Source: Candidatus Latescibacterota bacterium (lineage in GTDB: Bacteria; Latescibacterota; UBA2968; SICM01). From it: a DNA stretch of 64,000 nucleotides. Both the position numbers and the translations under genes were made by a program. The stretch spans positions 4,512,001-4,576,000 of the forward strand of contig CBDCJO010000002.1 in NCBI GenBank assembly GCA_965217865.1, read 5' to 3'. A model generated the notes under the pieces. The model saw only the letters and a program-made list of their open reading frames with translations, was not told the DNA's origin and searched no databases. Shown in pieces: positions 53,906-59,155 of the stretch (positions within the stretch are counted from its first letter, which is position 1; each line of letters begins with the position of its first letter).

Positions 53906-55207
53906 GTGTCGAACAGCCTCTACTGCACCTACACCAACTACAATGACTACTTCGACCCGGAGTGCGACCTGTCGGAGGGTCAGATCCCTTCCCCTGACTG
54001 GGCGGCGGAGAACTGTATGTACGACGAGAAGGGGGAACTGATCCGGGGTTATCACGAGGCCACCCGGCTACTGCCCAATCTTTACGTAAAATGGGCGAAC
54101 CAGGGAAAGCTGCAAAAGCGATTCTACAACCTTAAAGATTACCGGGAAATTATGCGCGTGAATTCCTTCTTCTTCGATGTGCACGCTAGACTCCCACCCG
54201 TCCACTACTTCGACCAAAAGGGAACCCATTACAGCCCGAGGGATTTTCTAAGACACACCTCAGATCTGTTCGCTCTGGCTCGAGAATACGGGGAAGACGC
54301 CCCGATTTTTTCAAATTGCGGATACGGAGGCGAATGGCACGCAGGTGCGATGGAAGGGGGGTGGGCAAACAACCTGTTCCAGCCGAAGTTTTGGGGGATA
54401 GAGGGGGAGGACTGGGAATATTATCCCAACGTGGATCAGGTGCACAGACCTCATTATATGTCCGTGGGGGCGACAAGGGATAATGGCGAGAAGGAATGGG
54501 ACAACCGGAAAGCCCGGTTCCAACGGCAGGTTGCCCGCAACGTGTTGTTCGGTCGTACGGAGACGATCTATTGCTACTGGCCTACGGACATTAGCAGGTT
54601 CGACACCCGCTTGATGGGCTACTACCTGCATAGTGCTTTTCACCGGATGCTCGGGATGAATGGCATGCGTGAGATCGAGTTCGACGACGGGGATCTCCAT
54701 CGTCAGGTCGTTCATTATGACAACGGCGCTGCGATCTGGGTCAATCAGGGGGATGACGATTGGGTTGTCGACGGACGCAGGCTCAAGGAGGCCTGTTACC
54801 TCATCAAAGGACCGGATTTTCTACAGTATTCCGAAGTTCCAGCAGAAAAAGACTTCATCGTGGAGTTCGTGAAGAGTCCTGATTACTGGCTTTTCGCCTC
54901 TCCGGAAATGCACGACTTTGGTTCCGCTAAGGTGGACGGAGCGTACGCCGTACAGGTGCCCGAACCCGACCGGATCGTGGTCTACCAGATCCGCAAGACC
55001 CACGCCATGATCACCCTGTACCTGCCTGACTTCCTCGGGAGACCCGGGCCATACAGGTTGATGGGGATCCATACGGTTTTCGACGGCAAATCCGTCAGGC
55101 GTAACCCGGATTACGAGATCAGGAAATCTACGGTGGAGGGGGACTACCTCAATTTCGAGCCGTCTCAGGACCCCCACGCATGGCGCTACGAAATCGAGAT
55201 TGAATAG
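53906..55207 (+). CDS. Hypothetical protein, probably the C-terminal part of a larger glycoside-hydrolase-like protein
   Basis: 433-aa ORF with coding-like composition, no RBS, abrupt start; FFFDVH, VHYDNGAAIWVN. Confidence 0.45.
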   Translation: MSNSLYCTYTNYNDYFDPECDLSEGQIPSPDWAAENCMYDEKGELIRGYHEATRLLPNLYVKWANQGKLQKRFYNLKDYREIMRVNSFFFDVHARLPPVHYFDQKGTHYSPRDFLRHTSDLFALAREYGEDAPIFSNCGYGGEWHAGAMEGGWANNLFQPKFWGIEGEDWEYYPNVDQVHRPHYMSVGATRDNGEKEWDNRKARFQRQVARNVLFGRTETIYCYWPTDISRFDTRLMGYYLHSAFHRMLGMNGMREIEFDDGDLHRQVVHYDNGAAIWVNQGDDDWVVDGRRLKEACYLIKGPDFLQYSEVPAEKDFIVEFVKSPDYWLFASPEMHDFGSAKVDGAYAVQVPEPDRIVVYQIRKTHAMITLYLPDFLGRPGPYRLMGIHTVFDGKSVRRNPDYEIRKSTVEGDYLNFEPSQDPHAWRYEIEIE

Positions 55208-55530
55208 TGTCTGGGCGGTGGGGCTTATTGGCGTTTTTGATCCCGGAAATGGTTCCCATAGGGATCAAAAATGAAGCCTTCAGGCCTCAATCGGGATCCT
55301 CAAGATCATACAAAAATAGCCCCGCTGGGAATTGACTCCGTCGGGGCTTGATTTTTTGTGCTTTAAATATCCAAACGTTATTTCATCACAGTATATAATA
55401 TACAAAATCCGGCTTTAAAAGTCAAGTATATAATATTATAAGTTCATAATTAATATTTAGTTACAGTTGACTTTGGCGATCCTCCTACTTATCTTTAGTC
55501 GAAGACGTTCAACCCCCAAAGGAGGATCGG

Positions 55531-56460
55531 ATGGTAAAGGAATTTCATCCCGACACACAAAAGAAATGTGAGTTTTGTGGTGAGGTTATTCCAAAGGTAC
55601 GTTCGATGTCCGTCCGGGACGTGCGCACCTGTGTAAAATGCCAGAAAAAGCTGGAGAAAAACCCATGGGAACTGAAGGATCCGAATCATAGGGAGGTTCA
55701 AAAGCAACAAGATGACGCGGACTTACCCAATTCCTTAGAGCTGCAAGACGATCATGTGAAGGTGGGGGGGTGGTCAAACAGCCTCCTGGAAATGACCTCA
55801 AGGGGGGTCGAACTCAGAACACTTATGGATTCAGGTAAAGTGCGGGACGCGCGCACTTTCGTTCAGCACTTAACTGTTCCGGCGCAAGCTGCACTGGTTT
55901 CTCTGGATCAAAATCCCGAGGAGGTCCTTTCTGTCACCGGAATGACAGATTCAGAACTACCGGCCTACTGTCCGCAGGTTGTGGATTTACTCCCGACGGA
56001 GCTTTTGGCGGACCTGGTTGCCCCCCACACAGAGTACCTGAGGTTCAACATAGAAGTCCTAAAGGCGATGTCACCCAAAACTTTTCGGCGGGTAATGCTG
56101 GAGACCCTGGATCCAATCGATAACCTGGAATATCGCGCCCAAGTGTCCTGGGAGTGGTTAGAGGCATTGGTGGCGATCGATGATCCTAATAAGATCGCAG
56201 AGCTTGTGGGGGACGTCGAAGTGGAGTTGCTTGAAGATGCCATCATTACTCGTTTTGAATATCTTGATATGCACCAAATCGTTGGGGGGGATGTCCCGCT
56301 TTTCCGTATCTTTTCGGAATCCGGAAATTTATCTGTCGATCCAGGGGACTTTTTTAAAGAGCCAAAAACAGCTAAAGTGATCAAAGCCCTTCACGAAGCG
56401 GTACCGGATCTTTTGAACGAAGTCGTACGAGGGGCTTGGGAACGTGCAGGAGAGGTTTAG
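55531..56460 (+). CDS. Hypothetical protein with an N-terminal DksA/TraR-type C4 zinc finger
   Basis: CEFCGEVIPKVR..RTCVKCQ; AGGAGG RBS. Confidence 0.7.
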   Translation: MVKEFHPDTQKKCEFCGEVIPKVRSMSVRDVRTCVKCQKKLEKNPWELKDPNHREVQKQQDDADLPNSLELQDDHVKVGGWSNSLLEMTSRGVELRTLMDSGKVRDARTFVQHLTVPAQAALVSLDQNPEEVLSVTGMTDSELPAYCPQVVDLLPTELLADLVAPHTEYLRFNIEVLKAMSPKTFRRVMLETLDPIDNLEYRAQVSWEWLEALVAIDDPNKIAELVGDVEVELLEDAIITRFEYLDMHQIVGGDVPLFRIFSESGNLSVDPGDFFKEPKTAKVIKALHEAVPDLLNEVVRGAWERAGEV

Positions 56461-58478
56461 GATGGTATGCCGTTAATCGGCACCTGGCTGGGGTGTTTTT
56501 TGAAGAAGTCCTTTCGAGGCTCAAGGACTTTAAGACGATGCTCTGCGGGGTTCTCCATAAAAGCATATATGGGTTCAAAAATGCGATCCCAACTCCAGAA
56601 CTCCTCTCCGAGCCTCATATACTCACGAACCATTTCAGTCCCTTCGGGGACGACCGGATGCATAAGAACCGTAGCCACCCGGACCATATGGAAAGCGTCG
56701 ATCAAGGATCGTCTCCGTAAGGCGGAGTCACAATCGTCATTATATGGCTTTCGTGCGCTCCACCGATGATTGATTTCTCTTATATATGCGCCAGCTATGG
56801 TTATAGCCTGGTGAAACTCATGTTTATACATGGCTTCTTCAAATTCCAGAATCGTTGTTTTCGCTTGCGATAAGATTTCATCACTAATTTCGCCTACCGG
56901 CACTTTTCCATCAAAGAATTTCTGAGCCGTGTAAAAGCAGGATCGAACAGCACGATTGAAAGCGTTGCTTAAAAGATTCCCTTCTTTTAAGACAGGGTCG
57001 CTCTCCTTTTCCCCCGCGTTCGGGTTCAATGGTCTTGGACGAAAACTCATGCTTCGCATTCCGAGTCCCAGACTCAGGAAATGAGCCCTCAGTTGATCCA
57101 CTGTATAGAAGTTGAGGAGGTCTCTTGCCATAGGCGGTTTTAATGCACCGCTGCTGCTGGCTTTTTTGTCGAGGAAAAGAAGGTGTCGATTGGCGACGAG
57201 GTGCGGGATTTGAATTTGGCCCTCGGGAGGGTCTATGGCCGGATGTTTCCCCTGCATTCCTATGAACATTGCAGCCTCGGGGAGGCTATAAAAAAAGACA
57301 TTGTCTTCTCCGATAAACTGGTAAACCTTTGAGTTTTTTGAGCACCACCAATCCCTCCAGTCTTTCTTATTCCCCCCTTGATGTTCTAAATATGCCGCGG
57401 TAAATGGTATTGGCGCCCAGAGCGATTCCGGCCATACCCAGAAAGTCAATCCGGCAAGTCCTTCCAATTCCGGAGCTGGTAAACCCCATTCCAGATTCCC
57501 GGTGAGCCGAAAGGGCACGAGTGTTTTGCCTGTTCGGTACATCACGGAATGCTCGCTTAAAATCGATCTCGCTTTTTCCTTATCTTCGAGGCGGTTAAAA
57601 ACCAATCGAACCGACCTGGCTCTTCCTTCCACCCGGTTGTGGGTGGGGAGTTGATGAACGACCGAGTTCAATGTCTCCACTTGATCTCGTGTCACGTGGA
57701 TAATGGGCGGCTCAAAGTGTTCCTGTATATTTCTGATGATGAAATCCCGCCATTCTCCGAATTCTCTCAAACTATTCAACCATGATTCCAATAGGGTCCG
57801 AAACTCCGGAAGTCTCAGATACCAGTTCGTAACTCCTCGCGTGTGCGGTCTGTCCCCCGTAAGGGTGCTTTTGGGGTCGATAAGGTCTTCCGGTTCGAAT
57901 TGGTGGCCCAGAGAACATTCATCGGCATAAGCCTTTTCAGATCGACATCCTTCTATCGGACAGAGGCCTTGCACTTGACGACCGGTCAAAAACGTTTTCG
58001 CTTTAATATCATAGAACTGAGGCGTGGTTCGCTTTTCCAAATGCCCATTGGCGTGGAGGGTTTCAATCAATAAGGCCCCGAACTCTCGATGAATATCCGC
58101 GAAACGATCGAAACCGGAGGCCGCAAAAAGATTTAAACTGACGTTGTACGCTTCCAGTGTTTCGGTTTGACGCTTGTGGTTGGATCGAACAAAGTCTTCG
58201 AGGCTCCCTTCAAATTCGCCCTGAGCGGTCAACTCCCGGTGTTCTTCGACGATGGGGGAACCGTAACAATCAGTGCCCGAAATAAAAATGACGTTCTCCC
58301 CCCCGATGCGATCACGGAGAAATCTGGCAAATGCGTCGGCGTGCACAAACAGGCCGCCGATGTGTCCAAAATGAAGGTCCTTGTTCCCATAAGGCATCCC
58401 GCAGGTGACAATTGCCCGCTCTGGAAAATTTGGCCTCCCCCGATCTCGAATATCTGACCTTTCTTTTTTTTCCTTCAT
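56457..58478 (-). CDS. Divergent methionyl-tRNA-synthetase-fold class I ligase, specificity uncertain
   Basis: MPYGN..HFGH (HIGH), GTDCYG, Zn knuckle CPIEGC..DECSLGH, WG.P.P, WVW, KASSS (KMSKS), helical anticodon domain; AAGGAG RBS. Confidence 0.85.
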   Translation of the reverse strand: MKEKKERSDIRDRGRPNFPERAIVTCGMPYGNKDLHFGHIGGLFVHADAFARFLRDRIGGENVIFISGTDCYGSPIVEEHRELTAQGEFEGSLEDFVRSNHKRQTETLEAYNVSLNLFAASGFDRFADIHREFGALLIETLHANGHLEKRTTPQFYDIKAKTFLTGRQVQGLCPIEGCRSEKAYADECSLGHQFEPEDLIDPKSTLTGDRPHTRGVTNWYLRLPEFRTLLESWLNSLREFGEWRDFIIRNIQEHFEPPIIHVTRDQVETLNSVVHQLPTHNRVEGRARSVRLVFNRLEDKEKARSILSEHSVMYRTGKTLVPFRLTGNLEWGLPAPELEGLAGLTFWVWPESLWAPIPFTAAYLEHQGGNKKDWRDWWCSKNSKVYQFIGEDNVFFYSLPEAAMFIGMQGKHPAIDPPEGQIQIPHLVANRHLLFLDKKASSSGALKPPMARDLLNFYTVDQLRAHFLSLGLGMRSMSFRPRPLNPNAGEKESDPVLKEGNLLSNAFNRAVRSCFYTAQKFFDGKVPVGEISDEILSQAKTTILEFEEAMYKHEFHQAITIAGAYIREINHRWSARKPYNDDCDSALRRRSLIDAFHMVRVATVLMHPVVPEGTEMVREYMRLGEEFWSWDRIFEPIYAFMENPAEHRLKVLEPRKDFFKKHPSQVPINGIPS

Positions 58479-58522
58479 AAATATCACTCTCCTTAAATCA
58501 AGCTCTCTTCCACTGTGTTTAG

Positions 58523-58564
58523 AAAAACAAAAAACCCGCTGCAGAGTGGAAGTCCACAGCGGGT
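58523..58564 (-). terminator. Attenuator terminator upstream of the MetRS-like gene
   Basis: Minus strand acccgctg..cagcgggt plus U-tract; 5' arm pairs with leader segment 58612-58622. Confidence 0.85.
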
Positions 58565-58600
58565 CGATGTTCGAATTGTTGATTAAATTATATCAAATTA

Positions 58601-58738
58601 TCATAAAATCTCCCGCCACGGAATCCCTTTTTGGACCTGTTGCTGCTGGAACTGGATACCTTCAAAGAACACCCCAGGTATCCATTTGGTTAACATTGCG
58701 CTTTCAGGAATCGATGATCCGTAGCGGTGAACCGACAT
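58601..58738 (-). CDS. Gln-rich leader peptide
   Basis: MSVHRYGSSIPESAMLTKWIPGVFFEGIQFQQQQVQKGIPWREIL* (alternative ATG 58696); 6 Gln in 8 codons. Confidence 0.72.
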   Translation of the reverse strand: MSVHRYGSSIPESAMLTKWIPGVFFEGIQFQQQQVQKGIPWREIL

Positions 58739-58786
58739 TTGGTCTATCTCGTCATCTGATTTAAATGGTTTTTCTACTCTGATCCT

Positions 58787-58815
58787 ACTTTAGGCGTTTT
58801 TAACTGTTATGTCAA
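58787..58815 (-). promoter_or_regulatory. Sigma70-type promoter for the leader and synthetase
   Basis: TTGACA-17-TAAAGT on the minus strand. Confidence 0.7.
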
Positions 58816-59155
58816 GGGATTTTACAAGGTAGAGTATAAAAAAGGGGCACCGTCGCTCACACAACGGCAATGATTATCTGACGTCATATCTCAGTCTTGG
58901 CGGGAATACGTTGAGAGAGGAATAAGAAGGTAACCCGGAGGAGCGTCCCAAGGAGACTTCCGAAGGAAGCGAAGCGACTGAAGGGCAGACACGGTGTGAA
59001 GATTCGGGGTATCATCATTGATGACGCAAAATTCGGTATGTTTCAGTCGTGACCGGAAAGCTGATGTAAGCCCATTTGCAGTGCAAGAACCCAAAGGGGT
59101 GAATGTGGTGATCAAAGCTTTGTTGTTACACGCAGTTTTGGGGTTGTCGCCTCTC

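Follow-up and report, generated by a model that had tools for sequence, protein, structure and literature searches.

The window analysed here is a 64,000-nucleotide stretch of a genome of Candidatus Latescibacterota bacterium (contig CBDCJO010000002.1, positions 4,512,001 to 4,576,000). At 56457..58478 on its minus strand it encodes a class Ia synthetase of 673 amino acid residues (aa) with the fold of methionyl-tRNA synthetase (MetRS). The protein is probably a subclass Ia glutaminyl-tRNA synthetase (GlnRS) that evolved from a MetRS of the E. coli/archaeal type. Together with its homologs it probably represents a second, independently evolved GlnRS, a MetRS-derived subclass Ia family that spans several phyla and is misannotated as MetRS. 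Members occur in Bacillota, Actinomycetota, Planctomycetota, Spirochaetota, Latescibacterota and others, and likely form a new aminoacyl-tRNA synthetase family. A preliminary description of the gene had proposed a non-methionine enzyme tied to glutamine, a view now supported by a glutamine leader upstream of the gene, by glutamine-specifier T-boxes of homologs and by the complementarity of the family with glnS and gatB. Direct glutaminylation is the simplest account of the regulation, the gene profile and the linkage to gltX together.

Distribution of the family relative to glnS, gatB and gltX

The accepted routes to Gln-tRNA-Gln are a subclass Ib GlnRS, or a glutamyl-tRNA synthetase (GluRS) acting together with an amidotransferase. 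The gene profile of the family against these routes is the strongest line of evidence. Among 50 carrier genomes chosen from 80 loci, glnS was present in 16, gatB in 34 and neither gene in 13. A set of 151 genomes, for which a completeness of at least 95% was requested, was then drawn from the clostridial family to which G102 (R. albus 8) belongs. Here the synthetase family occurred in 27 genomes, glnS in 47 and gatB in 117, and none of the 27 carriers possessed glnS. The 34 genomes without gatB were covered by glnS in 27 cases and by the family in 7, leaving none uncovered; all seven genomes devoid of both glnS and gatB thus carry the family gene. The taxonomic family of G072 comprises only nine genomes, too few for such a profile.

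A replicate at the class level comprised 220 scored genomes, 139 with glnS and 81 without. The family was sought in 78 of the latter, since three earlier genomes were left out, and G353 was unscored. It was found in 6 of 8 gatB-less versus 16 of 70 gatB-bearing genomes lacking glnS. In one exception (G403), glnS is broken at an assembly gap of N residues.

Eight carriers were inspected individually. Each possesses a single class Ib enzyme and neither an amidase domain nor GatA, and three of them are genomes of 0.8-0.9 Mb that keep the family gene next to a separate metG. AsnS was encoded in all five carriers checked.

The most common neighbor in the clustering of the 80 loci, for which seven neighbors were annotated, is gltX. 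It lies upstream of the family gene in 9 of these loci and in 9 of 15 loci of another set, as it does upstream of glnS in 3 of 10 glnS loci. A discriminator test on GluRS was uninformative, the Arg at the equivalent of E. coli R350 being present also in 9 of 11 sequences taken from gatB-only genomes. A long clostridial GluRS with a PRKD motif (loci L125, L128, L132, L177-L180, L203 and L207-L218) was detected in five of eight family-only genomes and in glnS genomes, and in none of ten gatB-only genomes, a small sample of related strains. This long type may mark a discriminating GluRS.

Predicted glutamine leader and attenuator upstream of the gene

A predicted leader open reading frame (ORF) of 31 codons (58601..58696, minus strand) precedes the synthetase gene. 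Six of its codons (15, 17-20 and 22) specify Gln, and an in-frame ATG upstream at 58738 would extend it to 45 codons. It contains the only run of at least four Gln among the 45,968 short ATG-initiated ORFs of the genome, 701 of which have runs of four identical residues. Downstream lies an intrinsic terminator-like hairpin (58523..58565, minus strand) of 13 pairs and -20.5 kcal/mol with a U tract behind it. This arrangement, in which cognate codons are clustered in a short ORF ahead of an intrinsic terminator, is the one expected of a ribosome-mediated transcription attenuator. Codons 26-29 of the leader include a predicted antiterminator segment (58612..58621, minus strand) that pairs at 10 of 10 positions, G-U pairs included, with the 5' arm of the terminator (58563-58554). 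Folded as isolated helices, antiterminator and terminator reach -21.2 versus -20.5 kcal/mol. The position of segment 58621-58612 is such that stalling on the run's first Gln codons would expose it, and a ribosome sitting at the stop codon would mask it. A sigma-70-like promoter, TTGACA-17 nt-TAAAGT (58787..58815, minus strand), was assigned from its match to the consensus at 10 of 12 positions.

A contig of a related strain, from one sample at a depth of 5-12, differs from the 96-nt leader ORF by nine substitutions without any insertion or deletion. The six Gln codons, the start, the stop and the terminator stem are unsubstituted, and one base of the antiterminator is changed. With P = 0.14 on this one contig, the sparing of the Gln codons was not counted as support. 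The window contains no RNA family recognized by Rfam and no tRNA recognized by ARAGORN, and therefore no T-box.

Glutamine leaders and T-boxes of homologs

Two distant homologs, L013 and L151, are preceded by QQQ leaders of their own, unrelated to the one above, each with a terminator and a possible antiterminator; the helices reach -14.1 versus -19.2 in L013 and -24.3 versus -17.1 in L151. The 300 bases upstream of L151 and L152 are identical.

Other homologs are preceded by T-boxes. Both T-boxes and leaders of this kind respond to uncharged tRNA. Of 15 loci submitted to Rfam, 3 have a recognized T-box upstream of the gene, and the AG bulge, the GNUG sequence, the specifier and the UGGN bulge can be identified in homologs. 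All loci with an antiterminator entered an alignment of stem I, in which the 23 readable specifiers were without exception CAG (13) or CAA (10); L192 adds a further CAA, so that 24 of 24 specify Gln, although many of these loci are related and 24 specifiers do not equal 24 independent events. Four loci with an antiterminator in which no stem I was found (L019, L037, L086 and L148) stand outside this count. The CAR frame alone yields a single amino acid, Gln, and the flanking frames are mixed. Four metG leaders served as control: two show AUG in the specifier column and two are unreadable. The gene is hence predicted from these leader sequences to be regulated by the charging of tRNA-Gln. Glutamine ranks among the rarest T-box specifiers in the portion of the TBDB description concerned (PMC7778990), and the Gln column is empty in the rows covered of a T-box regulon table (PMC3766115, supplement 2).

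Several features of individual loci were noted. L064 and L074 are two family copies in one Herbinix assembly, each with a CAA T-box. In the Herbinix-type loci L059, L060, L064, L074 and L081, a YneA-like LysM gene is located just upstream of the T-box, and four of the five have a divergent gene that reads as LexA-like. L032, on an Atribacteria contig, has a Gln T-box upstream of the gene outside the Bacillota. The Latescibacterota contig of L013 also contains a T-box (1470-1135, minus strand) that reads UUC (Phe).

Loss of the methionine pocket and the anticodon tryptophan

In MetRS, residues Y260, H301 and W305 (E. coli numbering) form the methionine pocket and W461 is the anticodon-reading Trp. 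The motifs quoted in the preliminary description were all recovered in ORF 58478-56457, and 198 family members were aligned with E. coli MetRS. The catalytic core is conserved (HIGH, D52, W253 and D296), with D52 and W253 retained in all 198 sequences and both His of the HIGH motif (HFGH, residues 36-39; 58362..58373, minus strand) in 197. The ligands of a single zinc knuckle, C173, C178, C188 and H192 (57903..57962, minus strand), are each present in 197 members, and the knuckle presumably binds zinc. The equivalents of N391 and R395 are invariant in the MAFFT alignment.

The residues around the amino acid are changed. H54 is replaced by Y in 191 members. The stretch GEDNVFFYSLPE (residues 390-401; 57276..57311, minus strand) carries K295 to E (E or Q in 197 of 198), H301 to Y (198 of 198) and W305 to E (155) or Q (42). 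The motif WPESLWAP (residues 349-356; 57411..57434, minus strand) forms a rebuilt wall of the side-chain pocket in which W253 is retained and Y260 is lost. KMSKS is replaced by KASSS (residues 439-443; 57150..57164, minus strand), of which K439, S442 and S443 are invariant, and is preceded by K438 in 190 members. Y397 and E/Q401 fall in the region that matches the Arg pair of the hydrazine synthetase domain PyrN, and no Arg is conserved there. The changes are nearly uniform across the 198 aligned members and are family traits rather than drift.

The preliminary description had named conservation of the methionine pocket and of W461 in a proper alignment as grounds for rejecting it; Y260, H301, W305 and W461 are all lost, and the column of W461, whose loss had been claimed by eye, contains no conserved Trp. 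For Y260, its reading as an insertion with a change to F holds in the loss of the Tyr, which is found either way; the F and the insertion appear only in the MAFFT/phmmer alignment. Profile-profile alignment with HHalign places WPESLWAP on WLDAPIGY without a gap for both templates, with A256 to S, P257 to L and Y260 to P. The change of I297 to N is not diagnostic, as canonical long-type MetRS share it (GKDN in L095, L097 and L107).

Relation to the MetRS and GlnRS of the cell

The ATG of ORF 58478-56457 was taken as start, an AAGGAG 10 nt upstream favoring it over the GTG at 58487. PF09334, at 202.7 bits, is the sole Pfam domain of the protein, in line with the earlier statement that a C-terminal tRNA-binding domain is missing; this absence is not diagnostic, since a MetRS of the same genome (L001) sits in a frame of 510 aa. 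The best 120 homologs listed (60-92% identity) carry generic names, methionyl-tRNA synthetase or class I tRNA ligase family protein, and the closest solved sequences are the MetRS of P. abyssi and E. coli. The protein nevertheless scores far below the cut-offs of all NCBIfam MetRS models, e.g. 233.8 versus 587 for NF001100 and 179.7 versus 336.35 for TIGR00398. It matches neither of the GlnRS models PF00749 and TIGR00440 and has no beta-barrel anticodon domain.

The same genome encodes two canonical MetRS, GlnRS, GluRS and GatB. A canonical metG above cut-off is also present in 49 of the 50 carrier genomes, G064 being the single carrier without a match. The protein is not the MetRS of the cell. 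One of the canonical-scoring MetRS of this genome (L001; G000:C2:4201113-4202186, minus strand) has HVGF in place of HIGH and may be atypical.

Fold, insertion and phylogeny

The AlphaFold model (predicted local distance difference test, pLDDT, 88.7) matched MetRS along its whole length in Foldseek. Comparison by VIA with E. coli MetRS gave Z scores of 35.3-35.7 and root-mean-square deviations of 2.4-3.0 over 469-527 residues, and Z ranged from 33.8 to 35.7 across MetRS structures. Residues 19-666 align to MetRS. The model shows the catalytic Rossmann domain of class Ia, including the HIGH motif and the connective peptide (CP) insertion, and helices at 495-621 correspond to the helix-bundle anticodon domain.

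The extra insertion noticed before the WG.P motif is real. It is specific to the family and comprises about 60 aa (residues ~258-318; 57525..57707, minus strand). In the model (pLDDT 78.5) it forms a compact domain of beta-alpha-beta-beta-alpha-beta order, with a predicted ferredoxin/ACT/RRM-like fold. It may contact the tRNA. A search for relatives of this fold returned unrelated proteins (best Z 8.8 and 8.1) that share a common arrangement only.

The separate clade envisaged earlier was found in a class Ia tree, obtained by a quick search with 55 sequences from which two long-type MetRS were left out. The family forms a single separate group with a support of 100 in the SH-like approximate likelihood ratio test (SH-aLRT) and is the sister group of the long E. 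coli-type MetRS (SH-aLRT 98).

Proposed function and alternatives

As a GlnRS, the protein would activate glutamine with ATP and then attach it directly to tRNA-Gln. The polar pocket formed by S352, Y397 and E/Q401, which has no Arg, would bind the amide of glutamine, and the rebuilt helical domain together with the ferredoxin-like insertion would read tRNA-Gln. A ribosome stalled on the Gln codons of the leader would leave 58621-58612 free to block the terminator, and the gene would turn on when Gln-tRNA is scarce, backing up the GlnRS already present. The copy in this genome is accessory, because glnS, gatB and two metG are present as well. In clostridia without gatB and glnS, the enzyme would be the sole supplier of Gln-tRNA-Gln.

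A number of observations weigh against this proposal. Since 16 of the 50 carriers also possess glnS, and the present genome both glnS and gatB, the family does not act as a replacement in every case; gatB is kept in 20 of the 27 carriers of the 151-genome set. In one genome of the class replicate (G471) glnS, gatB, an amidase and a family member were all not found, which reflects either an assembly gap or yet another route. Most of the genomes are draft assemblies, in which absences can be artefacts, and the sampled genomes are related and not independent, so that Fisher values computed from them overstate the associations. The second Lys of KMSKS is lost in all 198 members, the first being retained. 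At equilibrium the full leader folds with the terminator intact (pair probability 0.98-1.0) even when a ribosome occupies the Gln codons; since this holds at every ribosome position tried, switching would require a kinetic mechanism. Gln leaders were found in two further independent contexts among 108 genes scanned and in none of the others. In the quick tree the stem of the family is long (4.36) and long-type MetRS are few. Finally, attenuation, substrate, tRNA recognition and essentiality are what we infer from substitutions in the sequence, a predicted fold, the sequences of leaders and T-boxes and the presence or absence of genes, and the activity is a predicted one.

The alternative that survives best, itself improbable, is an indirect route. 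In it, a non-discriminating GluRS would make Glu-tRNA-Gln, whose side-chain carboxyl the protein would adenylate and amidate, thereby replacing GatCAB and not GlnRS. It accounts for the presence of the family in genomes without gatB and glnS and for the linkage to gltX, and synthetase paralogs that act on amino acids off the tRNA, such as HisZ and YadB, are named in a portion of one review (PMC7373986). However, the family excludes glnS (0/27) and not gatB (20/27), the pattern of a GlnRS substitute, and D52, which binds the alpha-amino group, is invariant. T-boxes and leaders sense uncharged tRNA-Gln, which amidation does not consume, and the long GluRS was found in five of the eight family-only and none of the ten gatB-only genomes in the small, related sample.

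Ranking next, and improbable too, is an accessory factor related to tRNA-Gln that does not aminoacylate for translation and serves in editing, modification or sensing. Such a role fits the absence of the second KMSKS Lys, and also the fact that this genome and 16 of the 50 carriers possess glnS alongside the family. PyrN, however, adenylates despite a similar loss of the motif, and an accessory factor leaves unexplained why the family is carried by 7 of 7 and 6 of 8 genomes with neither route and is retained in genomes of 0.8-0.9 Mb.

It is very improbable that the protein is a GluRS specific for tRNA-Gln, similar to GluRS2, that feeds GatCAB. Control by uncharged tRNA-Gln and the presence of gatB in 34 of 50 carriers would agree with this, as would the ability of a MetRS fold to bind Glu in PyrN, but such an enzyme would be harmful or useless in carriers without gatB and an amidase, and PyrN holds the Glu carboxylate by two Arg where the family lacks a conserved Arg and has Y397 and E/Q401 instead. 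Least probable of all is a divergent MetRS that is still specific for methionine, e.g. an inhibitor-resistant copy with incidental Gln signals: the fold, the database names, the invariant N391 and R395 equivalents and the carrier G064 without a metG match speak for it, and are outweighed by the loss of H301, W305, Y260 and W461, by 24 of 24 specifiers reading Gln and not AUG, by canonical metG in 49 of 50 carriers and by a glnS/gatB pattern that it leaves unexplained.

Genomic context

The gene is patchily distributed, occurring in 2 of 61 related genomes. The GC content across window positions 55000-58999 is 0.47-0.50 versus ~0.55 for the contig, and this low-GC patch is in line with horizontal acquisition. 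The upstream genes (61028-59156, minus strand) encode a GntR-like regulator, an ABC ATPase and a permease. The synthetase gene is apparently transcribed on its own, because these genes end in a terminator-like hairpin of their own (58869-58848). On the other side, an ORF at 55531-56460 (plus strand) is convergent with the synthetase gene and overlaps it by 4 nt; it encodes a protein of 309 aa whose N-terminus has a DksA/TraR-like C4 zinc finger, scoring below curated cut-offs, and whose other part has no assigned domain. PADLOC returned no match.

Comparison with known systems

The whole-chain fold is shared with the long-type MetRS of E. coli and P. abyssi (PF09334, TIGR00398; 1QQT, 1F4L, 1RQG), as are HIGH, D52, W253, the CP knuckle and the helical anticodon domain. 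In contrast to MetRS, the family is only ~20-25% identical and stays below the metG cut-offs, has lost Y260, H301, W305, W461 and the second Lys of KMSKS, contains the insertion of ~60 aa and has predicted Gln rather than Met regulation.

The MetRS-like domains of hydrazine synthetases (PyrN; 9L8V, 9VQ4) likewise combine a MetRS scaffold with a changed amino acid specificity, and have a GxDN motif and a degenerate KMSKS in common with the family. As described in part of a preprint, PyrN adenylates Glu with KFSTG, also without the second Lys, and binds the Glu carboxylate by two Arg (bioRxiv 10.1101/2025.08.22.671884). It acylates a hydroxylamine, has a cupin partner and resides in biosynthetic clusters, whereas the family shows predicted tRNA-Gln control and a pocket without the two Arg. 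Pfam detected no cupin domain on the 673-aa protein, and no recurrent PyrN-type neighbor stood out among the 80 loci with seven annotated neighbors. Like GluRS2/GluGlnRS of the H. pylori type, the family appears dedicated to tRNA-Gln. In the relevant parts of two publications, GluRS2 is a subclass Ib enzyme that requires GatCAB (PMC3927822, PMC7373986), whereas the family also occurs where neither gatA nor gatB was found.

Table 1 of AARS Online, in the portion concerned, gives a single GlnRS family of subclass Ib (PMC11580382). Excerpts of a survey of 366 bacterial genomes define five groups, all of which possess GlnRS or gatCAB (PMC3927822), and a section of a review names just two routes to Gln-tRNA-Gln (PMC7373986). 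No description of the family was found in full-text literature searches; subscription papers and bioRxiv supplements lay outside their scope, so that a prior mention is possible. If the assignment is correct, a new synthetase family joins the core translation set, and a MetRS has in nature switched amino acid as well as tRNA. The assignment would also account for gut and rumen clostridia, including those with genomes of 0.8-0.9 Mb, in which neither known route was found, and many MetRS annotations would need correction. The family might further offer a scaffold for an orthogonal synthetase and represent an essential enzyme restricted to certain lineages.

With respect to regulation, the leaders of homologs resemble T-box riboswitches (Rfam RF00230), but are specific for Gln. 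The leader in the window resembles the attenuators of trp, his and pheST, which are of the leader-peptide type, in its leader ORF with a run of cognate codons and its predicted, overlapping antiterminator and terminator, here again specific for Gln. With GlnRS (glnS, subclass Ib, TIGR00440, PF00749) the family shares the predicted product Gln-tRNA-Gln, the complementation of gatB absence and a possible location downstream of gltX, and differs from it in the subclass Ia fold with a helical instead of a beta-barrel anticodon domain. The protein is thus predicted to work like a GlnRS from outside the glnS family, built on a MetRS and failing the tests for one.

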